Origin: a virus | Lineage: Duplodnaviria > Caudoviricetes | IMG/VR virus record: IMGVR_UViG_3300036846_000450 | Span: 1-51,032 of that record | Length of the DNA stretch: 51,032 bases | Strand: one strand, 5' to 3' | Part shown: piece after piece, positions 1-51,032 of the stretch | Layout of the letters: the number at the start of each line of letters is the position of its first letter | Position numbering within the stretch: position 1 is the first letter of the stretch | Made by a program: the position numbers and the translations under genes | Notes under the pieces: model-generated | The model's input: the letters and a program-made list of their open reading frames with translations, nothing else | Told to the model about the DNA's origin: nothing | The model's database searches: none

Positions 1-353
1 CCAGGGCGCAGCACGCCCCAGAGCTCGAGGATCTGAATCGCTTCCGGGAGAGTTTTGACGCAGGCGTAGGGATGGCCGAGGCGCTCGCAGCGGGCGGCGA
101 AGCCATGCTGCTCGTTCGACAGCCGGCCGCCTTTGGCCTTGAGCTCGAGCCAGCCGCACTGCCCCTCCTCGAGCATGATGCAGATGTCGGCCGTGCCGCG
201 CCGGACGCCCTCTGCCTTCAGCCGCAGTCCGACATTGGCGTGGCGGAGCTCACCATTGGCAATCGCGAACCAGTGCAATTCGGGGCGGCCATTGACGTCC
301 AGGTAGCCGATCAGCCGGACCTGGAACGAATGCTCTGGGCTCGCCCGCCTCAT
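1..353 (-). CDS. VRR-NUC domain nuclease, runs off the left edge
   Basis: Manual translation from ATG at 353: MRRASPEHSFQVRLIGYL...HWFAIANGE...LKAEGVRRGTADI...WLELKAKGGRLSNEQHGF, the typical VRR-NUC E..Q / G..D / ELK motifs; ATGA overlap with the upstream MTase; absent from the ORF track. Confidence 0.85.
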   Translation of the reverse strand, partial: MRRASPEHSFQVRLIGYLDVNGRPELHWFAIANGELRHANVGLRLKAEGVRRGTADICIMLEEGQCGWLELKAKGGRLSNEQHGFAARCERLGHPYACVKTLPEAIQILELWGVLRP

Positions 354-952
354 GGCTGCGCTCCCGGCTGCGGGGCAGGTTCCCGGTGCAGCCAGTCCAT
401 GACGGGCGCCGTGGCGGCGCCTGCATCGGTCTTGTCGAACACGGCCCAGCAGAATTCTTGCCGTCCCTTGCCGACCCTGCCGCCGGCCTGGATGTAGGCG
501 CCTGGCGGCATCGAGGGGCGCGGCGTCAGCAGCCAGATCCGCACCAGGGGCAGCTGCTTCAGCCAGTGCGAGGCCACGATCCTGGCCAGCGGCAGCAGCG
601 CCACCGTCTTAAGGCGCGAGCACGCCACCATGTGGGTGACGAACCGCTCGAGCTCGTCATACGGGGGGTTGGAGATGATGTTGTCGTGGACCCGGTTCCA
701 TTTGAGGAAATCGCTCGGCGTCAGCGTCGAATCCCAGCCGCGGTTGATGATGTCGCTGCCGGCGGCGTGCAGGCCGCGCTCGAGGGCGGAAATTACGATC
801 GTGCCGAAGCCACAGGCCGGATCGTAGATGTGGCCGTCGAATCGCTCGACGTCGAACAGGCGCCGCGAGCACCAGGCCGGCTCGACGTAGTGCGAATGCT
901 GTTCTTTCGGGAAAATGTGGGAGGCGCGCGGGCGTCCTTCGAGGAGGGTCAT
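350..952 (-). CDS. Phage DNA N6-adenine/N4-cytosine methyltransferase
   Basis: SAM-binding motif I DPACGFG and catalytic motif IV NPPY. Confidence 0.8.
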   Translation of the reverse strand: MTLLEGRPRASHIFPKEQHSHYVEPAWCSRRLFDVERFDGHIYDPACGFGTIVISALERGLHAAGSDIINRGWDSTLTPSDFLKWNRVHDNIISNPPYDELERFVTHMVACSRLKTVALLPLARIVASHWLKQLPLVRIWLLTPRPSMPPGAYIQAGGRVGKGRQEFCWAVFDKTDAGAATAPVMDWLHREPAPQPGAQP

Positions 953-1176
953 GCAGAAACCCTCGTCTTCGTTTTCGAAAGCTTCCGGTCATAGGCGGCA
1001 ATGAACTTCAAGCATTCGCTGTGAAGCTCTTCGCGAAGCTCACGGCCGGCACGAAGCTCCGGGACCAGACAAGGATCGTTCGCAACAGAAAGGCCGAAGC
1101 GTGTCGGCGACATGCCGGTACGCCTTAGAAATTGCTCGACTTCCCGTAGGAAAAGACCTGTTCGCGACTGGGGCAT
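949..1176 (-). CDS. Cro-like HTH regulator
   Basis: 75 aa, FLRRTGMSPTRFGLSVANDP..V..LRAGR pattern; divergent from the cI-like gene. Confidence 0.75.
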   Translation of the reverse strand: MPQSRTGLFLREVEQFLRRTGMSPTRFGLSVANDPCLVPELRAGRELREELHSECLKFIAAYDRKLSKTKTRVSA

Positions 1177-1361
1177 GGCCCAATGTTGCGAGCGTCACGA
1201 TACTGAAAACAAGTTTTTAAACTCTTGGCATTTCCCTTTGCGGGGCGCCTTCCGTGGCCTCTTCGCAAAGTAAGTTATGCGGATTTTTTATGGGCAACTG
1301 CAAAAAACGTTTGAGTGAAACTTTTAAAAGGCTTGCTTCGTAGTATGGTTGAACAAGGAGA

Positions 1362-2093
1362 ATGCCAATGCTTGCGCATTTCCATCATCACTTTAAAGGT
1401 TCATCGATGGATAGCTCAACCGACCACATTCGTCTTCGTACCTTCGTGCGCGAGCGCATCGAAGCGCAAGGTTTGACGATGGCTGAAGTTTCAAAATCAA
1501 TTGGTAGAAATCCTACTTACATTCAGCAATTCGTCAGCAAGGGCGTTCCTAAAGAATTCGACGAGGCGGATCGAAAGCTACTTGCGATCATCTTGCAGGT
1601 CGCTCCGTCGAAGCTCATGGGGCCGGGCCGTCCGCGAACATCCCGTACTTTTGATGAATCGATCAACAAACGAATTAACGAACTATGGCCACGACACGAA
1701 GGAGAGTTTACAGAGCTCCCCGTCTACCACGCGGTCAAAGAAGACAGTGGCGTTGTTGTAATGTCGAAGCGACCGAAGAGCAAAGCAGTCCCGCCCATGG
1801 GTGCGAACGCCTATTGTCTTTACGTCGCCGACGATTCGATGGCGCCAGAGCATTGCATCGGTTCGCTTGCCATTGTCGATCCAGATCTCGAACCAAGGAT
1901 AGGAGCGACTTGCGTCTTCGTCGCGATCGGCGGACACAGCGAGATCAAGATCCGTCGCATTAAGGGTGAGACCGCCGACAGTTGGAAAGTTTTCGCTCAC
2001 AACATCGCCGGCCGACACAAGGATGAGACCTTGCCCAAGGCACGCTACAATCGGCCGCACGTCACTTGCGGCAACTATTTCCGAACCGCGTAG
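1362..2093 (+). CDS. CI-like repressor (XRE HTH + S24 peptidase-like domain)
   Basis: N-terminal GLTMAEVSKSIGRNPTYIQQFVSKG HTH; C-terminal AYCLYVADDSMAP..G....VDP S24 pattern; divergent to cro; start may be ATG 1368. Confidence 0.85.
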   Translation: MPMLAHFHHHFKGSSMDSSTDHIRLRTFVRERIEAQGLTMAEVSKSIGRNPTYIQQFVSKGVPKEFDEADRKLLAIILQVAPSKLMGPGRPRTSRTFDESINKRINELWPRHEGEFTELPVYHAVKEDSGVVVMSKRPKSKAVPPMGANAYCLYVADDSMAPEHCIGSLAIVDPDLEPRIGATCVFVAIGGHSEIKIRRIKGETADSWKVFAHNIAGRHKDETLPKARYNRPHVTCGNYFRTA

Positions 2094-2261
2094 CTCTCCA
2101 CCAGGCTTCACTCAGGATTTGAATCGCCCCTGGAATGCAGAATTCCAGGTCTAGGCGATCGATGGACTATGCCTATTGACTGCCTACGGGGCGGTGTTAG
2201 CGTTGCTCTGGCTGCGAGGGGGCTTGAGCGCTGCAATCATCATCGGACAGGAGGCGGGTCC

Positions 2262-2462
2262 ATGTCCAACGTCACCAACACTGCCCTACCCAACCCCTTT
2301 ATTGACGCACCCATCAACACACTTTCGGAGCCGGTCGCGCGGGACATCTGCGAGGCGATCGAGGCGGAGCTCCAGGCCTGGTCTGAGAGCCGGCCACTGT
2401 TCCTTCGTCCAGGCTTTGCCAAACGCATTGACGATCTCCCCTACCAGCCGCGGCGAGGGTAA
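2262..2462 (+). CDS. Hypothetical protein, paralog of 50599..50880
   Basis: GGAGG RBS; shares ALPNPF.D.P and AIEAEL.AW...RPLFL with the 50599 ORF. Confidence 0.6.
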   Translation: MSNVTNTALPNPFIDAPINTLSEPVARDICEAIEAELQAWSESRPLFLRPGFAKRIDDLPYQPRRG

Positions 2463-2467
2463 CGAGC

Positions 2468-2737
2468 ATGCTGGCCAATAACATGAACAACGAAACATAT
2501 AAGATCGAACACAACGTCCCCTTTCCAGAAGACCGCGCTCGGAAAAACACGCGCTCGGCCGACTATCCGTTCGCCAAGTTGGCGATCGGCGATTCTTTTT
2601 TCGTGCCGTCGCGGCGGGCGTTCATCTCGCAGGATCGGCCGCTGTATGAAGCACTGCAATATGCGCGGCGGGTGACTAGCTTCCACCTCGAGTGGCGCCG
2701 CGAAAAGGGTGGCTATAGGATTTACCGACGACCGTAA
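2468..2737 (+). CDS. Small phage DNA-binding-like hypothetical protein
   Basis: KIEHNVPFP...YPFAKLAIGDSFFVP...GYRIYR pattern common in phage early genes. Confidence 0.65.
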   Translation: MLANNMNNETYKIEHNVPFPEDRARKNTRSADYPFAKLAIGDSFFVPSRRAFISQDRPLYEALQYARRVTSFHLEWRREKGGYRIYRRP

Positions 2738-2994
2738 TGCCATCTCCCTACACCAGGCAACAGGTCAAGGCCCTCGAATTTTTCGAGCTCGAGGGCCGCG
2801 ACCCTGCCCGCCTGATGTTGACCAGGGCGCCCGCCGCCAAGACCAGGAATTGGCTGATCAGCCGCCAATTGTTGGAGCATCAGCCGGTCGGCCAGTTCAA
2901 TTTTCGGCGCTACCAGCTGACCCAACAAGGTCGTGAGGCCTTGATCTCTGTCAAACATCGGCCCCGCCGATCAACCAAAAAAAGCGCAGGCTAG
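2737..2994 (+). CDS. Hypothetical protein (winged-helix-like, ..YQLTQQGREAL)
   Basis: TAATG coupling to upstream gene; wHTH wing motif. Confidence 0.55.
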   Translation: MPSPYTRQQVKALEFFELEGRDPARLMLTRAPAAKTRNWLISRQLLEHQPVGQFNFRRYQLTQQGREALISVKHRPRRSTKKSAG

Positions 2995-3012
2995 CGCCAA
3001 GGGATTAGGCAA

Positions 3013-3345
3013 ATGCCCATCACCATATCGTCAATCGCGATCGCCTTCGATGAGGAGACGAAACAACACCTCGAGCGCATCAGGAAGAACGCCCCCTCCT
3101 ATCTGAACGAAGATGCGAAACAACTCTTTGCTCTGATCTCGGCGCTCTGTTCAGGTCGGAACATGGAGGAGCTCCTCAGCCTCCTGATGCCGATTGTTGC
3201 CGACATTGTGATGCAGGGCGTCGAGCGGATGGGCGGCGACAAGGACGCCAACTTCCTGCACCAGCTGAATCGGATCATTGCCTACATGACGCAGGTTCAC
3301 GCGAACGACGACAGCGACGGCGGCGACAAAGGCACGCTTCAATGA
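3013..3345 (+). CDS. Hypothetical protein
   Basis: Co-oriented ORF in a tightly packed operon. Confidence 0.6.
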   Translation: MPITISSIAIAFDEETKQHLERIRKNAPSYLNEDAKQLFALISALCSGRNMEELLSLLMPIVADIVMQGVERMGGDKDANFLHQLNRIIAYMTQVHANDDSDGGDKGTLQ

Positions 3346-3554
3346 TGAACGGTCGCCCTGGCCCTGAGGTCGAGAGGGCATATGCAGTTTGTGCCAATTT
3401 CTGTGACGATCCACATTGCGGCCTGCATTTAATCGCTGAGCGCCACAATGGCGACGTGATTTGTGAGGTCGTGATGTCGCCAGAACAGACCCTCGCGCTC
3501 GTGAACCTGTGCAAAGAGCATCTTTACGAGAAGGCAACCAAAAGAGAGGCTTGA
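3342..3554 (+). CDS. Small Cys/His hypothetical protein
   Basis: ATGA overlap; FCDDPHCGLHL motif. Confidence 0.6.
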   Translation: MMNGRPGPEVERAYAVCANFCDDPHCGLHLIAERHNGDVICEVVMSPEQTLALVNLCKEHLYEKATKREA

Positions 3555-3614
3555 ACTGGATCGGCAACAGAATAGGGTTTGTCCTATTTCCTACAACCAC
3601 AAGGATAGGATGAG

Positions 3615-4316
3615 ATGCCTAAGGAGATACCGACAGTCGAACGCTTCCGGGTCTTTCTCGAGGTGCCAGTCGAACACCTCGGGCCCGCGATGTCACAGTT
3701 GGCAAAAATGGAGCACGTCGTCGTCACCGGCCAGGAACTGGTCACGGAGATGCTGCGCTACAAAGGAAGAGTGCAACACGAGACGAGCACAGAGCAATGG
3801 TTTGTCGAGTGGATCAAGGACCACCCCACCTTCAAGATCAAAGAGGTGGTCAAGGCTGGCAAGGAGCTCGGCCGCACGCCTGCTTCGGTTTACACGGCGG
3901 CGCGGACGCTGGTCGAGAAGGATGTGCTTAAAAAGCTTGGTGACGGCGCCTACTCGCGCGCAGACGTCAAGGCGATCGAGGGCCCGACCAAAAAGAAGCG
4001 GAAGCCCGTAAAGGCGAAAACCTACGACAAGACAGGCGACGCCATCATCCTGGCGTACGCGAGCAAAAACCACGGAAAATTCAACGTCACCAAGTTGAAG
4101 GAGCTCTTCGATAAGGAGGGCCGTCCGACTGGGTCGGTCTATCCGTCCGTCGATAAGATCATCAAGCGTGGCCTCGCCAAGCGTGTTGGAGAGAGCGGCA
4201 GCGGGCAGTACGAACTGGTCAGAAAATCAAAGCCGAACAAGAAGACACCTCAAAAAACCTCGCCACTCAACGGTGCTGAGGCAACAACAATCACTGAAAC
4301 TTCCAAGGAGGTCTGA
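3615..4316 (+). CDS. Lys-rich double winged-HTH protein, paralog of 41170..41880
   Basis: Two wHTH-like repeats (SVYTAARTLVEKDVLKKLGDGAY; SVYPSVDKIIKRGLAKRV..GQYEL); N-terminus resembles the 41170 ORF. Confidence 0.7.
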   Translation: MPKEIPTVERFRVFLEVPVEHLGPAMSQLAKMEHVVVTGQELVTEMLRYKGRVQHETSTEQWFVEWIKDHPTFKIKEVVKAGKELGRTPASVYTAARTLVEKDVLKKLGDGAYSRADVKAIEGPTKKKRKPVKAKTYDKTGDAIILAYASKNHGKFNVTKLKELFDKEGRPTGSVYPSVDKIIKRGLAKRVGESGSGQYELVRKSKPNKKTPQKTSPLNGAEATTITETSKEV

Positions 4317-4318
4317 CT

Positions 4319-4669
4319 ATGGCGCGCACGGGTGGGTGGCTAACGCGGTCTTACAATTTTATCGATAAGGATCCTGAGGTTGATGTGTTTAGAACACTCT
4401 ACCAAAAAGAAAAACTGAAAGAGAGCGATTTGGCGGTCCTCGCCGGCCTGTCGGTGTCGACAGTCAAGCACATGATGGGTGGCGTCACGCGGCGGCCCCA
4501 GCATGCGACGTTCGCCAAGCTTGCCGGCGCGATGGGCTATAAATATGGCCTGCAGCGTGACGACACGCCCGACTACGGCAAGGAGATCCCGCGCGCTCGC
4601 GAAGAATTTGCGGAGCACAAGGAGCGCCTGCGCAAGAAGCGTGAGCGCGAGGCGAGGCGCACATCATGA
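4319..4669 (+). CDS. XRE-family HTH protein, paralog of 40783..41166
   Basis: DLAVLAGLSVSTVKHMMGGVTRRPQHAT HTH; AGGAGG RBS. Confidence 0.75.
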   Translation: MARTGGWLTRSYNFIDKDPEVDVFRTLYQKEKLKESDLAVLAGLSVSTVKHMMGGVTRRPQHATFAKLAGAMGYKYGLQRDDTPDYGKEIPRAREEFAEHKERLRKKREREARRTS

Positions 4670-4848
4670 TGATTTTGATTGGCATTCTTTTGGGCGCGCT
4701 CTGCCTGGTGGCCTGGTTGATCGATGTTTTCTTTCCGTACACTGCCAAGCAGTGGGACCGGATGGAGCGCGATCGGATCCATCATGAGTGGCTGGTGAAG
4801 ACTCGCCAGATCCCTCCCCCGCTGCCGCGAAAGCGAGGCCACGCATGA
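4666..4848 (+). CDS. Small single-TM membrane protein
   Basis: Hydrophobic N-terminus; ATGA overlaps at both ends. Confidence 0.6.
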   Translation: MMILIGILLGALCLVAWLIDVFFPYTAKQWDRMERDRIHHEWLVKTRQIPPPLPRKRGHA

Positions 4849-5111
4849 GCGCAACGCCAGGCTCGATCCTTCCTGGCGGCATCGTCTTGATGGACGAGCC
4901 GGCCAGCATCGGCCTCACCACCTTCAGCAACAATGGCGAGGTGCTGCTGACGTTCAACGCGCGGCCTGGCGGCAACTGCGGCCAGATCATTCTCGGGCTG
5001 ACGCCCAACATGGCGCTGCAGCTGCGCCAGGCACTCGACAAATACGGGGACGTTTGCGCGCGCTGGATCGCCGAAGGCAAGGGCGGAGCGAGCTTTACGG
5101 AGAAGCCATGA
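4845..5111 (+). CDS. Hypothetical protein, paralog of 38958..39221
   Basis: TPGSILPGGIVL.DEPA.IG.TTF..NGEVLL shared near-verbatim. Confidence 0.8.
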   Translation: MSATPGSILPGGIVLMDEPASIGLTTFSNNGEVLLTFNARPGGNCGQIILGLTPNMALQLRQALDKYGDVCARWIAEGKGGASFTEKP

Positions 5112-5350
5112 GCGCGCGCGCCAAGCGCCATTTGATCCACGAGATGGAGCCGCTGCTGCTGGAGGCGGAGCGTGCCATCCTGATTGGTGATGCGATCGGG
5201 ATGCTCAATACAACGCGTGCGCTGCTGCTGCTGGTGCGCGACTATCTAGACAAGGTGACGCCGGTAGAGATGCGCGACGCCCTCAACAATCCGACGGCCC
5301 TCCGCATCGCTCAAAGGCTGGGCGTTAACCCATGGCAGTACCGGCAATGA
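5108..5350 (+). CDS. Hypothetical protein
   Basis: ATGA-coupled ORF (MSARAKRH...). Confidence 0.55.
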   Translation: MSARAKRHLIHEMEPLLLEAERAILIGDAIGMLNTTRALLLLVRDYLDKVTPVEMRDALNNPTALRIAQRLGVNPWQYRQ

Positions 5351-5356
5351 GCGGAG

Positions 5357-5575
5357 GTGATCATGGCCCTGGAAATTGTAAAGGTTCAGCTGCCCCTCAG
5401 TGATCCGACCCACCCTGCCCTGGTCTATGCCAGGGGCCGGCGTCACCTGACGCAGCAGCGCCTCGAGCCGTCGGCGCGCGCCGCGATGGGGCTGCACTTC
5501 AAGGCCTTTTTCGAGGCTGAGTATCACGACGGCGCCTGGATCCTGGGCGAGCGCGTCACCGATCGGGACTGGTGA
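5357..5575 (+). CDS. Hypothetical phage protein
   Basis: GGAGGTG RBS; IVKVQLPL...ALVY...KAFF.A...DRDW pattern. Confidence 0.65.
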   Translation: MIMALEIVKVQLPLSDPTHPALVYARGRRHLTQQRLEPSARAAMGLHFKAFFEAEYHDGAWILGERVTDRDW

Positions 5576-5844
5576 GGCGCGATATGGCAACCAAAATCTA
5601 TGTCGATATCGATGATCGCCGATTCATCGTGGTGCTCGACGAGGCCGGAGCCCCGGTGCGCGTCAAGGAGCGCAAGAAATACGGCAAGTATCCGATCGAT
5701 GGCTGGTTCGATCAGACCTCCTGGACCGCCAGGCACCATCGTATGCCCAAGAAAGGCGTGATTTTGCGGGCGATCGAAGCGGCGCGGGAAGCCTTCAACA
5801 AGTCTCAGACACCCCGCAACAGCGCTGCCGCGGCCTCGCAGTAA
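5572..5844 (+). CDS. Hypothetical protein
   Basis: GTGA-coupled ORF. Confidence 0.55.
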   Translation: MRRDMATKIYVDIDDRRFIVVLDEAGAPVRVKERKKYGKYPIDGWFDQTSWTARHHRMPKKGVILRAIEAAREAFNKSQTPRNSAAAASQ

Positions 5845-5941
5845 ACGTAAATGGTTGTGACCAATCATAGGCACATCGTGCCTATGTTGACCGTCCCGTT
5901 GAGATCGCATTCAATTCGGTCCATGAAATCGGGAGGGTACA

Positions 5942-6307
5942 ATGGCAGCTGCGCGCTGGGACAACTTTAGACGGCCCGAATATATCGAGCGTTTGCGACT
6001 CACGCGTGAGGCGCTCGGCTACGAGCAGCAGAGGACGTTTGCCGAAGCGCTCGGCATCCCGTTCAAGCGCTGGAACAGCTACGAACGTGGCTACCCGATC
6101 CCGCGCGAGACGGCGTGGCTGCTCGAAAAAACGTTCGGCGTCTCGGTCGAATGGCTGTGGTGGGGCAAGGAAGGCAATATGCCGAAATCGCTGCTCAAGA
6201 AGATCCACAGCGCCAGGGTCAATTCTGCTGAACTACTAGAGGCCCTCGAGGAGGAGCGCAAGGCACGGTTGAGGGTCGATAAACTCAAGGCCAAGAAGCC
6301 AAGCTAA
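5942..6307 (+). CDS. XRE-family HTH regulator, paralog of 40242..40523
   Basis: RLRLTREALG..Q.TFAEALGI.FKRWNSYERG...FGVSVEWLWWG; GGGAGG RBS. Confidence 0.85.
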   Translation: MAAARWDNFRRPEYIERLRLTREALGYEQQRTFAEALGIPFKRWNSYERGYPIPRETAWLLEKTFGVSVEWLWWGKEGNMPKSLLKKIHSARVNSAELLEALEEERKARLRVDKLKAKKPS

Positions 6308-6335
6308 AGCGGCAGCGTCAAAAGAACCCGCCGCT

Positions 6336-6548
6336 TTAGGTCACATTCCGTGACAGCAGCGCCGCCGCGGCCTCACAATAGGCTGGCCAGTTGGTCTCGG
6401 TGAACTCGACGGTCGCGAATTCCAGATCCGGCTCGTAGCCCCGCCAGAGATGGAAGATCATGGCCTCGTGCTCGCGCTCGATGGCGCGGATCGCCCAGCC
6501 CTCGCCGCGCACACTGAGCCAGATGTGGTCGTCGTGTTGCTCACTCAC
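6336..6548 (-). CDS. Hypothetical protein
   Basis: GTG start overlapping the stop of the upstream gene; convergent hairpin at about 6306-6336. Confidence 0.45.
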   Translation of the reverse strand: MSEQHDDHIWLSVRGEGWAIRAIEREHEAMIFHLWRGYEPDLEFATVEFTETNWPAYCEAAAALLSRNVT

Positions 6549-6756
6549 TGCCGCCGTCGCCGTCGATGACCCGCAGTTGATCCGGCCGGTAGATGTGCAA
6601 TGCGCCCTTGACCTGGTCGGCCGTGCATTCAACCACGACGCGGTCCTCGCCGGCAATATTGCGGAAATGCGCCACCACGATGCCGGGCCAGCGATAGCCT
6701 TCCTTTTTCTCGACGTGGTCGCCGAGATCCAATCGCGTCGCCACTGGCGCCTCCAT
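6541..6756 (-). CDS. DfrB/R67 dihydrofolate reductase-like SH3-fold protein
   Basis: LGDHVEKKEGYRWPGIVV...VVE...GALHIY...L aligns by eye with R67 MGDRVRKKSGAAWQGQIV...AVE...GSVQIY...L. Confidence 0.6.
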   Translation of the reverse strand: MEAPVATRLDLGDHVEKKEGYRWPGIVVAHFRNIAGEDRVVVECTADQVKGALHIYRPDQLRVIDGDGGSE

Positions 6757-6865
6757 TTAAGGTTGCAGTGAGGCAGGAAAATCCAGCCGCACCCTCCCTT
6801 CGCCAAGCCTCTTTGCGGCGCTGCCGCGCCGCTCTTCTTCGAAAAAGAGCCTGACGCGACTAGCG

Positions 6866-7435
6866 TCAGTCCGATATTGCTCTCTTCAGCCGGCCCAGAG
6901 CGGCCTCGAGCTCGGGGTCGATCGCGATCGGGACCGGTTTTTGCGCTGGCACCAAGGGAAAAGATTCTTGGCCTGCGGTTCCAGGCTTAATTTCGGACTT
7001 AGACCTTTGCACGTCGGGGACCGCCGCGAACTGGTAGGCATTGGAAGTCCGCAGCACCCGCGAGCGCTGGCCGTGCTGGCCCTGGCCGAACAGGTTTAGG
7101 ACCGTCTCATAGACGCGCTTGATGCGATGGACCCAGGTCAGCAGGCCAGAGGCCTCGAGCGCTTTGATGGCCTCGTAGACCGTCGAGCGGGCGCAGCGGG
7201 CCTTATCCGCAATCGCCTCGTAGGATGGGAAGCACCAGCCGCTGTGGGCGTTGTGGAAGCCGTACAGGAGCGCCTCCAGGACCGCTACGTGCTTCGCCGT
7301 GAGCGCGCCATAGTGCTTGCGCTCCTCGGTTCGACGCATCAGCGCCCTCGCCTGGCGCATCAGGTTGGCTTTCTGGTGCCCGGTCATCGGGCGCGGTCGG
7401 CCGTAGCCGAATAGCTTCTCGCGTTTTGTCGTCAT
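6866..7435 (-). CDS. HTH-type plasmid replication initiator (HTH_36-like RepA)
   Basis: VLEALLYGFHN..SGWCFPSYEAIADKARCARSTVYEAIKALEASGLLTWVHR...RTSNAY pattern of alphaproteobacterial small-plasmid Reps; GGGGA RBS before ATG 7435; adjacent to parA. Confidence 0.75.
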   Translation of the reverse strand: MTTKREKLFGYGRPRPMTGHQKANLMRQARALMRRTEERKHYGALTAKHVAVLEALLYGFHNAHSGWCFPSYEAIADKARCARSTVYEAIKALEASGLLTWVHRIKRVYETVLNLFGQGQHGQRSRVLRTSNAYQFAAVPDVQRSKSEIKPGTAGQESFPLVPAQKPVPIAIDPELEAALGRLKRAISD

Positions 7436-7505
7436 TGGTCCCCCGTGGGGGCCGCGCCACTCACCAGGCAAAGCTCCGCCGATCGGGAGAACGTCGTGTT
7501 TCCCG

Positions 7506-41166: not shown

Positions 41167-41169
41167 GGC

Positions 41170-43917: not shown

Positions 43918-44129
43918 CAGCGGCGCTCCCATTTTGTCGGCGGCAACGCCTCCCGGCATTCGACGCAGGCGTGGCGAAATTTTCCGTCCTTCCATTGACT
44001 GCGCCAGCGACGATCGTGGTGCAGCTCCTCCATCCAATCGTCCCAGCAGTTCGCCGGCGCCAGGGTCACGGTGCCGTCGCAGAAATCGCAGTGCACGATG
44101 AGGCCCTGGACGGTCATATCAGGCCTCAT
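43917..44129 (-). CDS. Small Zn-ribbon protein
   Basis: CDFC...W......HACVEC. Confidence 0.6.
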   Translation of the reverse strand: MRPDMTVQGLIVHCDFCDGTVTLAPANCWDDWMEELHHDRRWRSQWKDGKFRHACVECREALPPTKWERR

Positions 44130-44631
44130 CTTGAGGCAGGGACGACATCGGCAGCAGCATCGCGTGCGGGACGAGGAAGCAGGGCTCGCGCCCTTTTTTC
44201 ACCTCACCCCACAGCTCGGACTTCTTGCCGTCGCGGGCGTAGATCCAGCCGACCAGCGCCACATGCGGCAGGCGCACGAAGGCTTTGACGAACGGCTGAT
44301 CGTCGGCGTCGGGCTTGTGCAGGATCAGACCAGCATTCGGGCCGTCGTAGCCGCTGGCGCGGACCTGGTGAAACGTCCCGACGTCGGCCGCAGCGCGGTT
44401 GCCATATGCGCCATTCCAGTAGCACTTCAGAAACCGCGCCAGCGAGATCTCGCCGCAGGCGCCGTTGATGTTCTCGTCGAAGCCGGGGCCTTCCGGGCGT
44501 CCATATCGGCCCGGTGTCTGATCGCGGATCGCAGCGAGCGACCGCTGCAAGCCGACGAGCGAGGCGATGTGGATTTCTGATGGTGTGAGCCGGCACCACA
44601 CCCAATTGGCCTTCGGATCATCCGCGGTCAT
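44119..44631 (-). CDS. Putative PD-(D/E)xK-like nuclease-fold protein
   Basis: GACGE..LAR.L...DVG...QVR...VGW pattern. Confidence 0.5.
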   Translation of the reverse strand: MTADDPKANWVWCRLTPSEIHIASLVGLQRSLAAIRDQTPGRYGRPEGPGFDENINGACGEISLARFLKCYWNGAYGNRAAADVGTFHQVRASGYDGPNAGLILHKPDADDQPFVKAFVRLPHVALVGWIYARDGKKSELWGEVKKGREPCFLVPHAMLLPMSSLPQDEA

Positions 44632-44831
44632 GATGGCGCCTCTTGCCAGGTGACGCGCGTGCACCGCGCGCCGGAATGTGTCGGATACGCGATGTCGAAC
44701 ACCGCGATCAGCTCGCCGCGCTCGGCCTCCAAGCGCTGCCGCTCGGCCTCGATGTCCGCCGGCGTCGCGACGAACAGAAACAGCGACGCATAGTCGAGCA
44801 CGTTGGCGTTGACCGGGTGCGTCGCTGTCAT
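44628..44831 (-). CDS. Hypothetical protein
   Basis: ATGA-coupled. Confidence 0.5.
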   Translation of the reverse strand: MTATHPVNANVLDYASLFLFVATPADIEAERQRLEAERGELIAVFDIAYPTHSGARCTRVTWQEAPS

Positions 44832-44833
44832 GA

Positions 44834-45280
44834 TCAGGCCGCCTTGCCGATCGGCAGATCCGGCTGGTCCTTGTCGGCCTTCGCCGGCGCCTGCTCGCCG
44901 ACAAATTGCGAGGCGTCCGCCAGCACCAGGACGGCGCCGCGGCTGCCGTGTTCGGCCAGCGCGATCATGTTCTCGACCAGGGGCGTGATCGCGAGTTCGA
45001 GCTTCAGGTCGCCGCCCTTCACGGTCCATTTCGCGATCTTGGCGTGGACGTGCGGCGCGCCGGCCTGCGCGATCAGCGCCACCACCTGGCGCACGCAGTG
45101 CTCGGCGCAGCTCTGGATGGCGTCGATCGTCATCTGCTGCTCGTCCTCGGCCAGCATCGCCCATGGCACGCGGATGCCGCGCACATGGGTCAGCAGGGCG
45201 TCCCTGATGTCGCCGGACAGCGTGTCGGTCTGGGCGGCGTCGATGATGGTCGCGGCGTCGATCTTGAGCGCGTCGGTCAT
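44834..45280 (-). CDS. Conserved phage protein
   Basis: TL.GD.RD.LL......PW..L.E..Q...DKDQPDL; GAGGAG RBS. Confidence 0.65.
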   Translation of the reverse strand: MTDALKIDAATIIDAAQTDTLSGDIRDALLTHVRGIRVPWAMLAEDEQQMTIDAIQSCAEHCVRQVVALIAQAGAPHVHAKIAKWTVKGGDLKLELAITPLVENMIALAEHGSRGAVLVLADASQFVGEQAPAKADKDQPDLPIGKAA

Positions 45281-45302
45281 GCTGGCTTCTCCTCGGGGGT
45301 GA

Positions 45303-45947
45303 TCATCGGAGCCAGCCCTTCTGCCGCATCGTGTCGTGCAGCGCGTCGCTGGCGATGTCGGTGGATTTTTGCACGGCTTCCCTTGCCTTGTCGGCGAGAC
45401 CCTTTGCCGGCCCAGGCGGCGGTGGCTGCGGAGCCGGCGGAGCCGGCGGCATCGAGCCATCTGAAATCTCAGGGGTTTCGGGTCGCGCGCGCGCAGCCTC
45501 AGAAACAGGTCTATCTATATCTTCTTCTGGTAGCTTGACGGTTGCTGCCGTTTTGCTGCCGTTTTGCTGACCGTTTTGCTGCACGATTGCTGCACGTTTG
45601 CTTGACGGTTGCTTACCGCCCCACCGAGCAATTGCTGATGCGGTCCCCCCGATCGAACCAGCCAGGCGCCGGCGCTCGCTGACCTGGTCGGCGGCCACCA
45701 GGTCGCGCTCGATCCGATCGTGCCGCCAGCCGGGCCCGAAAAATGGCGCGATCACTGACCGGATCTTGCGCCAGGTGGCGAGCGGCATCCGGGTGATGGT
45801 GGCGAGTTCGCGGTCGTCGTCCGGCAAGCCGCCGTGGGTCCAATAGTGCAGGATCAGCAGGAAGTAGGCGCCGTGCTGCGCGGTGGTGAGGTGCTGGGTG
45901 TCGCCCAGGTAATCGCGCGGCCAGAACGGCATCCAGGGGCGCTTCAT
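45303..45947 (-). CDS. DUF1376/YdaU-family phage replication initiator
   Basis: PWMPF...DYL.DT.HLT..QHGAY.LL...YW..GGLPDDD..LA.I.R. Confidence 0.85.
   Translation of the reverse strand: MKRPWMPFWPRDYLGDTQHLTTAQHGAYFLLILHYWTHGGLPDDDRELATITRMPLATWRKIRSVIAPFFGPGWRHDRIERDLVAADQVSERRRLAGSIGGTASAIARWGGKQPSSKRAAIVQQNGQQNGSKTAATVKLPEEDIDRPVSEAARARPETPEISDGSMPPAPPAPQPPPPGPAKGLADKAREAVQKSTDIASDALHDTMRQKGWLR
45534..45617. repeat. Iterons (about seven 11-12 bp units) inside the replication gene; putative lytic origin
   Basis: CTTGACGGTTG, CTGCCGTTTTG x2, CTGACCGTTTTG, CTGCACGATTG, CTGCACGTTTG, CTTGACGGTTG. Confidence 0.7.
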
Positions 45948-46014
45948 TGCGCGCTCACACGGTTTGGTAATAGGTTTGCCAGCAGCATGACTTCCTTCCG
46001 GGCGTTTGTTATTG

Positions 46015-46291
46015 GACCTGCAAAACCGACCTGCAAAAATCTGCGAACTGCACGCAAGCAGTTGAAATTGTTGAGATGTTGAGCTGAAATGAAGATCCGA
46101 CGGTCAAGACGTCGGCGCATTTTCAGCCCTCATCACGCCTCCTCACCAATCCTCCCAAATCGTCAAAATCTGTTGCATCTCAGGGGCTTATTGTCCGCTG
46201 GGCTCATCACCGGTTGACACCGCTCATCAGCACGCAGCACCTCATTTCGGATTTTCGGGGCTATTCGCCCTGCAAAATCAGGTCTACAGGA
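46015..46291. other. Putative attP
   Basis: Arm-like repeats GACCTGCAAAA (46015, 46028) and GCCCTGCAAAA (46267), IHF-like CAAGCAGTTGAAA (46055), core-like CCGACG-7bp-CGTCGG (46097-46115), directly upstream of the integrase. Confidence 0.55.
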
Positions 46292-46360
46292 TCAGTTGTA
46301 AGATCCTCATTTGCTCACTGCCTCCATTCCTGATTTTGCCAAAAAGGGACGACCCGCCCC

Positions 46361-47638
46361 ATGACCAAACGCCGCCTCACCGACGCCGATATTTTTGCCC
46401 TTCCCGATGGCGCCCACGGCTTCAACGGCCCGCAGCTCGACGTCCGCGGCGACGACCGCCGCTGGAGCTGCAAGGTGTATCTGCACAAGGTTCGGTTTAC
46501 AGTGCAGCTCGGCACCGCGGCCGAGCTGCCGACCGCGGCGCTCGCCACCAAGGCGATGATCAGGGCCCGCAAGATGGCCAAGGACGGCATCGATCCCCGC
46601 GAGACCGTGCGCCTGGAGCGCGGAACCGTGCCGACCTTCGGCGTCCAGGCCGAAGCCTTCATGGCCGACTACGTGCCGACCCTGAAGAACGTCAAGCAGC
46701 GCGCCAAATGGTTCTCCTCGGTGCGCAACCACTGCAAGCCGATCTGGAGCATCAAGGTCGACGCGCTCACCACCTCGCACATGCTGCTGGTGCTGAAGCC
46801 GATCTGGACCAAGATCCCGACCATGGCCGCGGAGGTCCGCTCCCGCATGGAGATGATCATCGACGACGCCACCTTCCGCGAGCACCGCAAGGGCGAGAAC
46901 CCGGCGCGCTGGACCCTGCAGATGCAGCGCTCGCTCGGCGGCAGGCCGCCCAGGTCCGGCAAGACCCGCGGCTCGCAGCGCGCCGTCCATGTCGACCAGG
47001 TTGGAAGCCTGATGGCCGATCTCGCCGCCCGCAACACCCAGACCGCGCGCGCCATCTACGTGCTCACCCTGACGTGCCTGCGCGGCGTCGAAGAATTCTT
47101 GCCGATGCACACCAGGGAGCTGCAGCTCGACGGCGCGCAGGCCTACTGGACGGTCCCCTATGGGCGCCTCAAGGTTGACCCGCATGGCCACGATTTCCGC
47201 GTGCCGCTGCCGGCCCAGGCGGTGCGGATGCTGCGGGTGCAGCTCGACTACCTCGAAAGCATCACCGGCCAGGTGCCCTACCAGGGCTACCTCTGGCCCG
47301 CCATCAACAGCGGCGAGCGCGAGCTGATGGGCTCCGGCACCATGCTGGCCTACTTGCAAAACACCCTGAACCTGCCGGCGACCGTTCACGGCCAGCGCGC
47401 GGTCTTCAAGACCTGGGCACGCGGGCAATTTCTTGAGGGCACGGAGGCGACCCCGAAATATCACCACGACGCGATCGAGTACTGCCTGGCGCACACCACG
47501 CCGGGCGGCCGTGCGTCGAGCGAAGACCCGTATTCCCGCGACGAGATGATGCTGAAGGCGCGCGCCGTCATCCTGCGCGACTGGGCCGATTTTTGCGCGC
47601 CGGTCGCAGTCCGCGGCGGCTTGCGCGCCGTGGCGTAA
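46361..47638 (+). CDS. int: Tyrosine integrase (P4/arm-binding type)
   Basis: N-terminal arm domain (LG......AR.....GIDP); catalytic LT.LR, K, HGQR..F.TW, LAH...Y.R. Confidence 0.9.
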   Translation: MTKRRLTDADIFALPDGAHGFNGPQLDVRGDDRRWSCKVYLHKVRFTVQLGTAAELPTAALATKAMIRARKMAKDGIDPRETVRLERGTVPTFGVQAEAFMADYVPTLKNVKQRAKWFSSVRNHCKPIWSIKVDALTTSHMLLVLKPIWTKIPTMAAEVRSRMEMIIDDATFREHRKGENPARWTLQMQRSLGGRPPRSGKTRGSQRAVHVDQVGSLMADLAARNTQTARAIYVLTLTCLRGVEEFLPMHTRELQLDGAQAYWTVPYGRLKVDPHGHDFRVPLPAQAVRMLRVQLDYLESITGQVPYQGYLWPAINSGERELMGSGTMLAYLQNTLNLPATVHGQRAVFKTWARGQFLEGTEATPKYHHDAIEYCLAHTTPGGRASSEDPYSRDEMMLKARAVILRDWADFCAPVAVRGGLRAVA

Positions 47639-47658
47639 CGCCATCGCGGCCGCGCGCC

Positions 47659-47886
47659 TCACTGCGTGCGGCCGTCCTCGGCGGCCAGCAGGCTCGCAAA
47701 CCGCTCGATCTCGCTCTGCGGCACCAGCACCCGGGTGCCGTATTTTTTTGCCTTGAGGTCACCGCGCTTGATGGCGCGATCGATCGTCGCGATCGAGAGG
47801 CCGAGCGCATGCGCGGCGTCCCGGCGATTGGCCAGCTGCGGCTGGGTCATGATGGTCGATCCCTTGTTCATCTCGCTCTCACTCAA
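47659..47886 (-). CDS. xis: Excisionase-like HTH_17 protein
   Basis: DAAHALGLSIATIDRAIKRGDLKAKKYGTRVLVP; convergent with int. Confidence 0.8.
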   Translation of the reverse strand: MSESEMNKGSTIMTQPQLANRRDAAHALGLSIATIDRAIKRGDLKAKKYGTRVLVPQSEIERFASLLAAEDGRTQ

Positions 47887-47901
47887 GATTTCACGATCGT
47901 T

Positions 47902-48144
47902 TCAGGCGTCTCCCACCGCGGCCTCCGCCGCCGGCGCCTTGGCACCGCCGAGCTTGAGCACCACCGTCATGGCGCCGCCCTGGTCGACCTGGAGATCGCC
48001 GAGCTTGAAGCCGACGCGCTCGGCGACGCGCATCACCGCGGCCAGGCCTTCGTAGCGGCCGCCCTTGTGGCGCGTGACCTTGTCGCGCGAGCCGGTGGGA
48101 CGGCCGCGGCTGCGTGCGGTCGCGATCTGGGTTGCCTCGTTCAT
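47902..48144 (-). CDS. Small AT-hook-like protein
   Basis: RSRGRPTGSRDK motif. Confidence 0.5.
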   Translation of the reverse strand: MNEATQIATARSRGRPTGSRDKVTRHKGGRYEGLAAVMRVAERVGFKLGDLQVDQGGAMTVVLKLGGAKAPAAEAAVGDA

Positions 48145-49004
48145 TGGCGTTGCTCCTCGTCACTCTCGGAATATTCGCCGTCGTTCTCGATCACCTCGCC
48201 ATCGCCACCGCCGTCGTCGTCGAGTTCTTCCTCGGCCGGCTTGCGGGTCGAGAGCCGATCGAGCGCCTCGGTCATGGTGGCGATGCGGGCGGCGTCGTCG
48301 TCGACCGGCCTGGCCTGGACGGCCGGCGCCGGCTCGTTCTCGGTCTCGCGCGCGAACATGCTCTCGATGTCAGTCGACATCGGCAGCACCTTGGAATGGC
48401 GGCGCGCCACCGTCTTTTTGTACATCTCATCGGTCCAGTTTGACCAAGGCCCCCAGTCGGCCTGCGACATCTCGCGGACCTTGTTCAGCTCCTCGATCCA
48501 CATCCACTCGCGGCTGATGTCGCCGTCGCGCAGCTTCGCGATCGAGTAGGCGGCGATCACCGGGCCGCGGTCGCCGCGCACCGGCTTGTGCAGGATGTGG
48601 GCGTCGTCGCCTTCCTGGTAGTCCCACTTGTCGTTCTCGTGGACGACATGCGCGGTCCAGTCGGAGATCTCGCCGGAGTTACGAACCTTCTGCCTGATGC
48701 CGGCGATCATCGGCATCCAGCGCGCGTTCTTGGTGCCGCGCTTGCGGTCCTTGTAGACCACGATGGCGCCGAGCCGTCCGTCCGGGATCAGGCCATCAGT
48801 CGCCGCCTGCATGCAGGCGTTGAACAGCGAGCGGCGGTCGACGTCGAGCAGCTCGGGGTTGTTCTGGATTGCGGTGATGACGACGCGCACAAACTTGGTC
48901 GGCGGGATGTGCGCCGGCAGCACCGCGGCGAATTGCGCCGCCATGTCGTGCAGCTGCTTCCGCACCTCGGGCAGCGCGCTCTGGGCTCGGGCCAAATTGT
49001 TCAT
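48141..49004 (-). CDS. recT: RecT single-strand annealing recombinase
   Basis: LP.HI....F.RV...A...NP.L...SL..A....A.DGL.PDG...W..W..EM.KKTV.RR..K.LP. Confidence 0.9.
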   Translation of the reverse strand: MNNLARAQSALPEVRKQLHDMAAQFAAVLPAHIPPTKFVRVVITAIQNNPELLDVDRRSLFNACMQAATDGLIPDGRLGAIVVYKDRKRGTKNARWMPMIAGIRQKVRNSGEISDWTAHVVHENDKWDYQEGDDAHILHKPVRGDRGPVIAAYSIAKLRDGDISREWMWIEELNKVREMSQADWGPWSNWTDEMYKKTVARRHSKVLPMSTDIESMFARETENEPAPAVQARPVDDDAARIATMTEALDRLSTRKPAEEELDDDGGGDGEVIENDGEYSESDEEQRQ

Positions 49005-49930
49005 CGGCTGTCCTTTCGCACGACGCGCAGCTGCCGATAGCTGGTCGGCTTGACCTCGTAGCCCGGCCTGTTCACCGTCTTGAGGCTGATGTAGCCGTCC
49101 GCGATGCGGCCGATGGTGGCGTGGCCGAGTTCGTGCATCAGCTGCGCGTTGAATTTTTTCACATCCTCCTCGGCGCGCTTCATGATCTCCTGGGCGCGCT
49201 CGCGCTGCTCAAGCAGGGCAGGCAACTCGTTGTCGCCGGTGAGGTCGATCTCGGAGCCGTCGTCTTTCTTGTAGAGCTGGCGGATCACTTCGCCGTCGCG
49301 CGCGAAGTCAGGATCGGGCGCGCGACCGGAGATCACCTTCTTCCAGAATTCGATCGCCTCGTGCTTGATGGTCTCGACGATCTCGTGGTGCATCGGCACC
49401 GGGATCATGTGCAGATCGATCTCGTGGTCGATCACCAGGGCGGCGATCGCGGCCCAGCTCGCGCCGGTCAGCTCGGCCTCGATCAAGGCCTGGATCACGA
49501 TCCACACCGGCGGCGTCGCGAGGTCGGCCTCGCCGCGCCAGGCCTGGCGAAACACGCTCGGCGCCACGCTCTTGATCTGAACCACGCCGCGGCCGCGCTC
49601 GGGATCGGAGGCGAACAGATCCGGCGTCGCGCCGATGCACACTTCGTGATCAGCGTAGTGCGCGCGCGGAACCATGACAGACAAGTCAGGAAACCGCTCG
49701 CGGATCACGTCGACCGCAATTGGTTCCAGGCGGCGGCCGCGCTCCATCGCCGCATTGTCCTCTGGCGCCGGCAGTTTGCCGCTCTTGCGCGCCCACAACC
49801 CATAATAGGTCAGATACTCGTGCACACCGACCAGCGCAGCCGCCTCGCTCGCGCCGATCACGCGCTGCCGCAGCGCATGCCACTGCTCGTCGTTTTCAAT
49901 TGGCGTAATTGTCACGCTCATCGCGAACAC
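49001..49930 (-). CDS. YqaJ-like recombinase-associated exonuclease
   Basis: W..LR...IGASE.AA..G....T...LW..K.G...G..LE...GATPD...QIK...Q. Confidence 0.9.
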   Translation of the reverse strand: MFAMSVTITPIENDEQWHALRQRVIGASEAAALVGVHEYLTYYGLWARKSGKLPAPEDNAAMERGRRLEPIAVDVIRERFPDLSVMVPRAHYADHEVCIGATPDLFASDPERGRGVVQIKSVAPSVFRQAWRGEADLATPPVWIVIQALIEAELTGASWAAIAALVIDHEIDLHMIPVPMHHEIVETIKHEAIEFWKKVISGRAPDPDFARDGEVIRQLYKKDDGSEIDLTGDNELPALLEQRERAQEIMKRAEEDVKKFNAQLMHELGHATIGRIADGYISLKTVNRPGYEVKPTSYRQLRVVRKDSR

Positions 49931-50129
49931 CCCTGTGTGTGTTGCGGATTACTGTTGACGGACTTCTGAGTCGGAGAGCAGCGTTCGAATTATCCGGCGG
50001 ATGTCTTGAACGCGGAAAAAGAAATTACCTGAGTTGGCGAAAGTCGCGCAAGCCAAAAAAATCAGGAACACGTCGGAGTGCATGCGCGAATGACGTCAGG
50101 GGCGGGGCGCGACTGACGGGAATGACACA

Positions 50130-50795
50130 ATGAAGTGGATGGCAGAAGAAACCAGCACGATGCAAGACCTGTGGCGGCAAAACCAATCAGCAACTCAAAT
50201 CGGGAAAGTGCTCGGCCGCACCAGGGATGCGGTCCTCGGCAAACTTGACCGCCTGAAAAAAGCGGGCAAGAGATTTGTCCGCATCAACAACACCAAGCAG
50301 CAGGAGGCGCGCGTGGCGAAGCCGCCGCCCAAGCGCATCAGACAGAGACCGCCGACGCCGCCGCCGACGCCGCGGCCGCGCTATCCGCGGCATCCGACCA
50401 TGCAGTGCCCGTGTCAGCTCGTCGAGCTTGAGGCGCACAATTGCCACTGGCCGATTGGCGACCCGCTCGACAAGCAGCCGAGCGGCGAGCACGCCGACTT
50501 CCTCGACCCGACGCGGTTTTATTTCTGCGGCGCAGTGACGCTGCCTGGCGAGAAATATTGCCCGGTGCACACGCGCATGGCCTTCCGGGAGAGCAAAGAT
50601 GAACAAGCCCGACGAAACGCCCAACGAAACACCAGCCTTGCCCAACCCCTTCTGCGATTTGCCATCAACGAGGCCTTCGCCACCGCCATCGTCCTCGGCG
50701 TCGCTTCCCCCGCGCAGTTTGTCCGACGTTACGTCTGCGATCGAAGCGGAGTTGCACGCCTGGACCAGCCGCCGCCCGCTGTTCCTGGAGGATGA
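50130..50795 (+). CDS. gcrA: GcrA-like transcription regulator
   Basis: W.......LW....SA.QI...LG.TR.AV.GK..RL N-terminal HTH; L.EL....C.WPIGDP...FCG......YC..H C-terminus. Confidence 0.85.
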   Translation: MKWMAEETSTMQDLWRQNQSATQIGKVLGRTRDAVLGKLDRLKKAGKRFVRINNTKQQEARVAKPPPKRIRQRPPTPPPTPRPRYPRHPTMQCPCQLVELEAHNCHWPIGDPLDKQPSGEHADFLDPTRFYFCGAVTLPGEKYCPVHTRMAFRESKDEQARRNAQRNTSLAQPLLRFAINEAFATAIVLGVASPAQFVRRYVCDRSGVARLDQPPPAVPGG

Positions 50796-50880
50796 ATTCA
50801 TGCGCCGCATCAACAGCGAGGTGCCGCACCGCGGCGGCCAGCTCGGCGAGCTGCTGCGGCGTCGCGTCACCGGCAGCTGA
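50599..50880 (+). CDS. Hypothetical protein, paralog of 2262..2462
   Basis: ALPNPF and AIEAELHAW...RPLFL shared; overlaps the gcrA tail by 197 bp. Confidence 0.6.
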   Translation: MNKPDETPNETPALPNPFCDLPSTRPSPPPSSSASLPPRSLSDVTSAIEAELHAWTSRRPLFLEDEFMRRINSEVPHRGGQLGELLRRRVTGS

Positions 50881-51032
50881 TCAGCCTTGCAGCCTGCGCC
50901 TGAAGTCGCCGATCTCGATCGGCGGCACGCCTTCGAGCGAGCGGATGCGGTTCTCGTGCTCGAACAGCACCACGTCCTGCACCGGATCATCGACCGGCGG
51001 CGGTGCGGGCGGCACGTGAGGATCGGGCACGC
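50881..51032 (-). CDS. 3' end of a second allele of the tail-fibre accessory gene (ends IEIGDFRRRLQG*)
   Basis: Same frame and sequence as 9451..9732 until the last few codons. Confidence 0.8.
   Translation of the reverse strand, partial: VPDPHVPPAPPPVDDPVQDVVLFEHENRIRSLEGVPPIEIGDFRRRLQG
50906..51032 (+). repeat. 127-bp exact direct repeat, copy 2 (window end)
   Basis: Identical to 9482-9608. Confidence 0.95.

Follow-up and report, generated by a model that had tools for sequence, protein, structure and literature searches.

A 51-kb soil virus record probably joins a complete podovirus-like phage genome to a fragment of a rarer candidate phage-plasmid

The record and its terminal overlap

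We analysed the IMG/VR virus record IMGVR_UViG_3300036846_000450 (Duplodnaviria; Caudoviricetes), the whole 51,032 bp of which are here called the window. The record is classed as "linear" and is rated 100% complete by CheckV. Using a codon model trained on long open reading frames, 86 genes were called, and these were scanned against the Pfam and PHROGs families. The window is made up of two parts, here designated the left arm and the circle, which meet within g23, a tail-fibre accessory gene placed directly after the tail fibre gene g24. The features that define this junction are as follows:

1..9481, no strand: left arm, probable fragment of a low-abundance related phage and candidate phage-plasmid (depth 5.5-8.2, GC 60.0%)
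9482..50905, no strand: circle of 41,424 bp, complete temperate podovirus-like genome judged by gene content (depth 38-45, GC 66.3%)
9451..9729, minus strand: g23, tail-fibre accessory gene across the junction, left-arm version of 92 aa (phrog_20370, phrog_34019)
9482..9608, no strand: first copy of an exact 127-bp stretch, codons 41-83 of g23 (exact match)
9729..11441, minus strand: g24, tail fibre (phrog_24210 and phrog_16641)
50881..50905, minus strand: 3' end of g23 in its circle form, last 8 codons, diverged homolog of 9451-9481 (alignment)
50906..51032, no strand: second copy of the 127-bp stretch, contig-end overlap equal to the assembler k (exact match)

The sequence at 50906-51032 is identical to that at 9482-9608. 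The maximal exact match is 127 bp, cannot be extended by a single base, and is preceded by different bases in the two copies. Because the 127-bp ends are identical, positions 9482-50905 close into a circle of 41,424 bp, which confirms what had been claimed in an earlier reading of the letters without database searches (the sequence-only reading). The two parts differ in base composition, GC content being 60.0% in 1-9481 and 66.3% in the circle; it amounts to 55-61% across the first 7 kb and climbs up to ~64% close to the junction.

The length of the terminal overlap matches exactly the last k-mer size of the Joint Genome Institute (JGI) Metagenome Workflow, in which 2x150-bp reads are assembled by metaSPAdes 3.13 with k values of 33, 55, 77, 99 and 127. 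Judging from its IMG/VR origin, the record was presumably produced by metaSPAdes at k=127. Overlaps of 127 bp between the start and the end of a contig have been reported elsewhere as the SPAdes k-mer size. The overlap described here has the same length, the final k of the JGI workflow, and differs in that the contig end matches an internal site rather than the start, giving a lasso with a 9.5-kb tail. An overlap of exactly 127 bp between an end and an internal site is obtained when an assembly path enters a loop via a shared 127-mer and then meets the same 127-mer again.

We therefore consider, with a probability of roughly 0.85, that the 51,032-bp record is a lasso path through a k=127 assembly graph and not one DNA molecule. 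In this case, the loop (9482-50905) would represent the whole genome of a temperate, podovirus-like phage that was abundant and infects an alphaproteobacterial host, while the lasso tail (1-9481) would stem from a related phage that was about 6-fold rarer in the same soil sample and that carries a replication (rep)-like gene, a repeat array, a plasmid-type ParA with a small partner and an S24 repressor-like gene. In the 3' half of g23, the two genomes would be exactly identical over a stretch via which the assembler would have entered the loop, halting as soon as it met the same 127-mer. The minor phage would leave the loop path soon after 9625-9670 and is predicted to be maintained as a plasmid. 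A junction of this type in a de Bruijn graph had been named by the sequence-only reading as the leading mundane explanation, and the k-mer size as well as the depths given below support it.

Contig depth changes at the junction

To compare the abundance of both parts, we used sequencing run X1 (soil, 2020), in which 0.97 of the sampled words of 4600-14500 were present and which is probably the source sample. Logan contigs (k=31) of this run were placed on 1-20000 of the window, and the k-mer depths given refer to the exact-matching contigs listed here:

1-3740: depth 6.28
3743-4588: depth 5.59
4567-5435: depth 6.95
6471-8327: depth 8.16
9045-9511: depth 5.5
9641-10839: depth 38.2
11350-15543: depth 39.2
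16897-19465: depth 45

All five listed contigs left of 9511 had depths of 5.5-8.2, and all three listed right of 9641 had depths of 38-45, i.e. coverage steps up at the junction and the left arm is about 6-7 times rarer than the tail genes. A comparison of depth between the arms had been proposed by the sequence-only reading, and as carried out here on contigs it indicates that two populations differ about 6-fold in abundance. The rightmost contig of the left arm reaches as far as 9511, 30 nt (k-1) into the shared stretch, and the next one listed starts at 9641. A stop k-1 nt into a shared stretch is what is expected at a branch node.

These depths bear directly on the idea, also raised by the sequence-only reading, that a single 51-kb element carries both arms, e.g. 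as a linear or concatemeric genome. The contig is indeed one record with a CheckV completeness of 100%. However, contig depth differs 6-7-fold between the arms, which excludes a single element carrying the two arms in equal copy number; the overlap at the contig end has exactly the length of the assembler k; and g23 would occur once as a whole gene and once as a 3' fragment. Genome length speaks against it as well. The portal protein of the circle has 134 relatives in IMG/VR, of which 80 were kept (55-77% identity) and form the basis of all counts per locus. Among the 19 long portal relatives, 7 are closed assemblies of 38,510-46,069 bp; the 41,424-bp circle falls within this range, whereas 51,032 bp exceeds all 7. 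A single element is thus rejected as very improbable.

The run also contains a variant contig with G>C at 9625 (depth 15.1 of 58.4), showing that at least a third related phage, seen in g23, is present in the same sample. Counted from the g23 start at 9729, positions 9625 and 9640 are third codon positions. A second run, X2, contained 0.06 of the words, in short, low-depth, diverged pieces on both arms, with the 9625/9640 variants at 38/38 and 38/42.5 and additionally a joint from 9670 to 10705. This run has no bearing on the junction and was set aside.

Two versions of the junction gene g23

The left arm and the circle encode different C-termini of the same gene, namely ...DFRKKLERLQ* in the left arm and ...DFRRRLQG* in the circle, as had been recognized from the letters alone. 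Outside the identical stretch, the two g23 versions remain in frame and homologous: an Asp and an Arg residue are kept via synonymous codons before the sequences diverge, and conservative codon changes occur as well. As both versions are diverged but homologous beyond the repeat, they represent two orthologs rather than a join of unrelated DNA.

Homologs of g23 were found behind tail-fibre genes in IMG/VR (11 contigs) and in metagenomes (12 contigs). The phages concerned have in common with the window only the C-terminal part of the fibre and g23. Aligning 17 sequences showed g23 to be conserved over its N-terminal ~55 residues and hypervariable at the extreme C-terminus. Across codons 41-83, which comprise the exact stretch, relatives are only about 50-65% identical in protein. 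Therefore, the 127-bp identity reflects recent common ancestry or exchange rather than conservation. An exact 51-mer of the shared stretch was found in 0 other records of the viral contig collection. Exact identity covers 127 bp; from the contig breaks and the variants at 9625 and 9641-9670, the identical segment would extend to ~143-189 bp.

One of the contigs with g23 behind its fibre genes, L009 (1-18604), is a prophage fragment of the baseplate type that has an integrase. It further carries homologs of the left-arm genes g9 (65%) and g8 (37%), which are the closest ones found for these two genes, as well as of circle gene g63 (47%). The fibre/g23 cassette and these early genes move across morphotypes, as far as morphotype can be predicted from gene content.

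The position of the junction could also be explained if the rarer phage were a genuine phage-plasmid with a near-identical virion module, in which a rep-parA-S24 arm replaces the int-xis-RecT-GcrA arm (integrase, excisionase, RecT and GcrA genes) and of which one boundary lies at 9481/9482. The contig would still be a collapsed path in this case, and it would report a real and recent exchange of lifestyle arms. Several features agree with this possibility. Identity drops abruptly from 100% to that of a diverged homolog when 10 codons of the last late gene remain, a pattern typical of recombination at the edge of a module. Within 10006-10672 the summed depth is 39.2 and that of the main contig 38.2, leaving nearly no second sequence at >=85% identity. 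A second sequence of that identity at ~6x is thereby excluded, and the minor phage must be either identical or very different there. In addition, such a lasso would form even in a faultless assembly, provided that the shared segment greatly exceeds the insert size. Conversely, the contig break at 9641-9670 and the variants at 9625 suggest branching right after the shared stretch, and tail-gene depths of 38-45 as compared to 35.8 for circle-only sequence show no resolvable extra 6x.

Gene content of the left arm

The genes and features of the left arm are:

1..353, minus strand: g1, VRR-NUC-like nuclease gene truncated by the contig end (phrog_824, E 4.5e-24; PF08774, E 1e-4, below cut-off)
350..952, minus strand: g2, DNA methyltransferase (phrog_799, E 4e-28)
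1362..2093, plus strand: cI/LexA-like protein of 243 aa (PF00717, S24 peptidase, E 1e-7; weak HTH_3, E 0.19)
3615..6307, plus strand: early-gene block including g9, g11 and g15, homologs of circle genes g68, g62 and g66 (blastp)
6866..7435, minus strand: g18, replication-initiator-like winged helix-turn-helix (HTH) protein (PF13730, HTH_36, E 1.7e-8; phrog_270, E 8e-12)
7742..7947, no strand: repeat array between rep and parA, candidate centromere or iterons (direct and inverted repeats)
7933..8622, plus strand: g19, ParA partition ATPase of 229 aa (PF13614, 1e-15; phrog_164, 7.5e-36)
8619..8969, plus strand: g20, small ParA partner of 116 aa, possible ribbon-helix-helix (RHH) centromere-binding protein (plasmid homologs)
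9048..9454, minus strand: g21 and g22, small membrane proteins encoded behind g23 in one operon with it (hydropathy)

The replication-initiator-like protein g18 matches nine PHROG families of replication initiation proteins or helicase loaders, the best being phrog_270. The array at 7742-7947 is composed of direct repeat family D1 (5x38 nt), direct repeat family D2 (4x18 nt) and the inverted repeats I1, I2 and I5. When compared to family NF041546, g19 reached an E-value of 2e-40 and 138 bits, which is under the 180-bit cut-off of this family. Matches of g20 to RHH families were weak (E 0.04-0.05, below cut-offs). Hence, in the order of rep, parS, parA and RHH genes that the sequence-only reading had assigned to this region, the rep-like gene, the repeat array and ParA could be recovered, while the RHH assignment remained weak. 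Similarly, its cI/cro switch is represented by the S24 peptidase domain with a weak HTH match; no cro gene was identified. The cassette fits an arrangement of a Walker-type ParA of ~200-230 aa, a small partner and repeats directly upstream, for which DNA binding is predicted, and is thus a type Ib-like partition cassette. Replication and partition genes, by which phage-plasmids are recognized, are present in the form of g18, the repeats, a ParA exceeding the Pfam cut-offs and its partner.

At the depth of the arm, only the 3' end of g23 and the two small membrane proteins are linked to the arm, and the virion genes are connected to the left arm solely via the shared stretch. The maximum hydropathy of g21 and g22 is 3.24 (two segments) and 1.92, respectively, and neither protein matched a family in Pfam or PHROGs. 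Scans for terminators at the two module ends detected none above shuffled sequences (2 sites as compared to a mean of 0.6, both of them inside g21, and 0 in the second region).

The left arm is related to the circle at the level of genes and composition. When its 22 proteins were compared with those of the circle by blastp, three clear pairs emerged, i.e. g9 with g68 (31% identity, E 1e-12), g11 with g62 (69%) and g15 with g66 (70%). Together with the junction gene and two weak pairs (g8 with g69, pairwise E 0.004; g18 with g78, E 0.017), this is in part consistent with the claim of at least six paralogous genes, fewer than six of them being clear. Tetranucleotide frequencies of the left arm correlate with those of the circle early region at r 0.88, comparable to pairs within the circle (mean 0.874, n=15), and with those of the virion half at 0.76. 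The left arm is therefore best considered a piece of a related phage. The median GC content at third codon positions (GC3) is 0.78 in the left arm (n=22) versus 0.85 in the early region of the circle (n=36; Mann-Whitney p 9e-5) and 0.86 in its virion part, the latter two being indistinguishable (p 0.18).

Two observations concern the ends of X1 contigs within the left arm. The contig on 1-3740 extends only 3 letters beyond window position 1, so an independent assembler halts there too, which points to branching or to a lack of coverage within the VRR-NUC-like g1. The contig on 9045-9511 has 24 extra letters that do not fit the window beyond 9045, and these hint that the path branches between the par genes and g21, in the gap towards which both converge. 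Due to this disagreement, the link between g21 and the par genes is provided by the original assembly only.

The latter observation leads to a further alternative, namely that the left arm is a plasmid fragment or a composite and not a phage, either because the end of g23 together with g21-g22 was captured or because a second mis-join lies near 9045. The 24 unfitting letters would agree with this, as would the fact that ParA and its partner are closest to those of ordinary Hyphomicrobiales plasmids without phage genes (see below). Opposed to this are phage-type genes throughout the arm, comprising the S24 repressor-like gene, the methylase, the VRR-NUC-like gene and the homologs of early genes of the circle and L009, and a uniform arm depth of 5.5-8.2, the bin at 8672-9338 being covered at 7.4. 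We consider a plasmid origin of the arm improbable.

Relatives and hosts of the two arms

The closest cultured relatives of the circle are Rhizobium phage RHph_I3_18, whose portal is 47% identical, and the Brucella phage Tb group (42%). With this podovirus group, whose closed genomes are 38.5-46 kb long, the circle has the head, portal and terminase genes in common, but not its fibre region g23-g28 nor most of its early genes. Integrases of family PF00589 are present in 4 of the 19 long portal relatives. In contrast to the window, which served as positive control, no match to PF13614 (ParA) was obtained in any of the 22 other records, and 0/19 portal relatives had one. Protein searches with ParA and g80, the integrase-like protein of the circle, also gave no match in the records of 22 relatives; lacking a positive control, these searches carry no weight here.

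Left-arm genes have counterparts in this family nonetheless: homologs of g1, g17 and g22 occur in 4/80, 1/80 and 1/80 portal-relative loci, respectively, the g1-like genes (4/80) being located about 3 kb upstream of the large terminase gene. In the window, g1 runs out on the left and g23 enters on the right of the arm, both on the same strand, as genes flanking the virion block of the family would. Because of these family-typical flanks, the left arm is best read as the non-virion part of a temperate phage with rep and par genes, i.e. a candidate phage-plasmid.

The ParA protein g19 is 53-62% identical to ParAs on Hyphomicrobiales plasmids, with relatives in Methylobacterium, Rhodopseudomonas palustris, Microvirga, Xanthobacter, Shinella, Rhizobium and Agrobacterium, and g20 is about 50% identical to the gene following ParA on two of these plasmids. 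The phage-sized plasmids pR24_3 of Microvirga and pVL1_5 of Methylobacterium were considered as possible relatives of the arm and rejected, as apart from the ParA pair they have nothing in common with the window except, in one case, a recombinase, and carry no annotated phage structural genes. Among phage records, ParA identity was 31-36% in the 12 matches listed and below 60% in all 256 matching records. No relative of the left-arm ParA was obtained from the viral contig or metagenome contig collections, and the genome contig collection yielded only a match at the level of the Walker A motif, in a metagenome-assembled genome of Oscillospiraceae. At the DNA level, neither the 50,697 phage records nor the 72,556 plasmid records gave a match to positions 1-8000 by blastn in distant mode.

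The ParA relatives and the GcrA-like regulator point to alphaproteobacterial, probably Hyphomicrobiales hosts for both arms. A GcrA-like regulator, as encoded on the circle, and a DNA methylase, as encoded on the left arm, are both typical of phages of Alphaproteobacteria.

Extent of the segment shared by the two phages

The sequence-only reading had proposed two sister phages, one plasmid-like and one integrating, that have nearly the same tail ends and exchange whole early modules. The data support it as far as the left arm is concerned, which derives from a related, rarer rep/parA phage without an integrase in the 9.5 kb seen, and only this far. We slightly favour that the two phages share only a short patch of less than 200 bp. 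This is suggested by the contig break at 9641-9670; by the GC3 of the arm (0.78), which is far below that of the virion part (0.86) in an otherwise homogeneous circle; by ParA being present in 0/19 portal relatives; and by L009, the nearest relative found for the left-arm early genes, having a virion module of the baseplate type. The same four points argue against a phage-plasmid that shares the virion module and carries a replaced lifestyle arm. This explanation gains from g1 and g23, which lie at the arm ends on the same strand and flank the virion block in family relatives. We regard a swap of this kind, and with it the sharing of a large part of the virion module, as the less likely case.

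A number of points weigh against the lasso with a short shared patch. Being the probable source, run X1 gives no independent support for the sequence, and its depths are contig k-mer depths with one figure per contig, derived neither from read mapping nor from read pairs. Depth for circle-only sequence is a single value (35.8), taken from a paralogous contig cross-placed on 6025-6151. The difference between this value and 38-45 is within scatter, so that an additional ~6x from the minor phage in the tail genes is not discernible. The identity boundary coincides with the very end of the late operon, as it would for a true module boundary between sister phages, and the homologs of g1, g17 and g22 in the podovirus family imply that the minor phage may have a virion module of the same family. 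Finally, none of the collections yielded the sequence into which the minor phage itself continues; the search with g23 gave 12 metagenome loci, none of them near-identical.

Parallels and consequences

Closely related phages are already known to swap integration and partition cassettes. According to a study on cluster A mycobacteriophages, related phages carry either an integration or a partition cassette, the latter sometimes with RepA, in colinear position; of 621 phages in this cluster, about 20% lack an integration cassette and carry parABS in its place, and the exchange was judged likely recent (PMC7157519). There, shared virion modules are demonstrable in complete isolate genomes, whereas in our case the link between the par/rep genes and a virion module is putative. 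The mycobacteriophages further differ in host phylum, morphotype and type of ParA, which is here a small ParA with a partner of ~116 aa. Conversion between phage-plasmids and integrative prophages is described for P1-like elements (PMC10879196). With phage-plasmids in general, the left arm has in common the combination of replication and partition genes with phage genes; no known group matched it in the DNA or ParA comparison.

The deposited record should best be regarded as a chimeric path and is probably a chimera despite its classification as linear and 100% complete. With integrase and ParA/Rep genes mixed in one entry, it would distort predictions of lifestyle, the detection of phage-plasmids and statistics on genome size. 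Cases of this kind can be flagged simply by an overlap of exactly k between a contig end and an internal site. Biologically, the data point to two related temperate phages of Hyphomicrobiales-like hosts in one soil, one of them integrative and the other probably plasmid-borne, between which a tail-fibre accessory gene was recently exchanged at least in part. If the virion module were shared, the swap of integration and partition cassettes known from cluster A would extend to podoviruses of soil Alphaproteobacteria. The minor phage would then be the first one with partition genes in a podovirus family of which 0/19 long relatives carry ParA, and both phages would form a natural pair in one soil sample. 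Even this boldest reading would amount to a known cassette swap in a new phage family and host group.

Further genes of the circle

In addition to g23 and g24, the following genes of the circle were identified:

15601..17019: g27, fibre or spike with S74 chaperone (C-terminal Peptidase_S74 domain, E 4e-10)
22516..23553, minus strand: major capsid protein (phrog_9953, 5e-74)
28475..30841, minus strand: portal (phrog_12082, 1e-176; the 134 relatives in viral contigs)
31409..32767, minus strand: large terminase (phrog_2, 9e-24)
36805..37461, plus strand: g57, serine recombinase or invertase (PF00239, 2e-25; homologs in 16/80 portal-relative loci)
45303..45947, minus strand: DUF1376 or primosomal-type replication protein (PF07120, 3e-17; phrog_6451, 1e-16)
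46361..47638, plus strand: g80, diverged tyrosine-integrase-like protein (PF22022, Phage_int_M, 4e-13; PDB 2khv, 2e-14, central domain only)
47659..47871, minus strand: excisionase-like HTH_17 protein (PF12728, 7e-8; phrog_66, 4e-8)
48141..49930, minus strand: RecT annealing protein and YqaJ/RecE-like exonuclease (PF03837, 1e-36; PF09588, 2e-13)
50130..50795, plus strand: GcrA-like regulator (PF07750, 5e-24)

Judged by this gene set, the circle is a full, self-sufficient temperate phage genome, predicted to be of podovirus-like morphotype. The DUF1376, RecT and GcrA genes that the sequence-only reading had placed on it all matched their families, and several HTH regulators are encoded besides. 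Its int/xis pair was corroborated in part, by the Phage_int_M domain of g80 and the excisionase-like HTH_17 protein. PF00589 was not detected on the window even though all 14 control genomes match, and the C-terminal 235 aa of g80 matched no Pfam family at E<=1; the PHROGs scan likewise revealed no catalytic domain in this protein. By eye, an arginine, an HxxR motif, a histidine and a tyrosine follow each other in the C-terminal half of g80. We take this order (R / HxxR / H / Y) to be the usual catalytic pattern of tyrosine recombinases, and g80 may accordingly be a very diverged member of this group. A tRNA scan found no tRNA gene in the window, and the phage attachment site attP was not located, no host junction having been searched for.

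The virion part includes g26, an internal-virion/transglycosylase-type protein. The Peptidase_S74 domain of g27 marks a self-cleaving fibre or spike besides the g24 fibre. The recombinase gene g57 and its small neighbour g58 (36805-37673) are kept in 16/80 and 11/80 portal-relative loci, respectively, with identities of up to 72%, and may constitute a family-typical recombinase that is separate from the tyrosine integrase-like gene.

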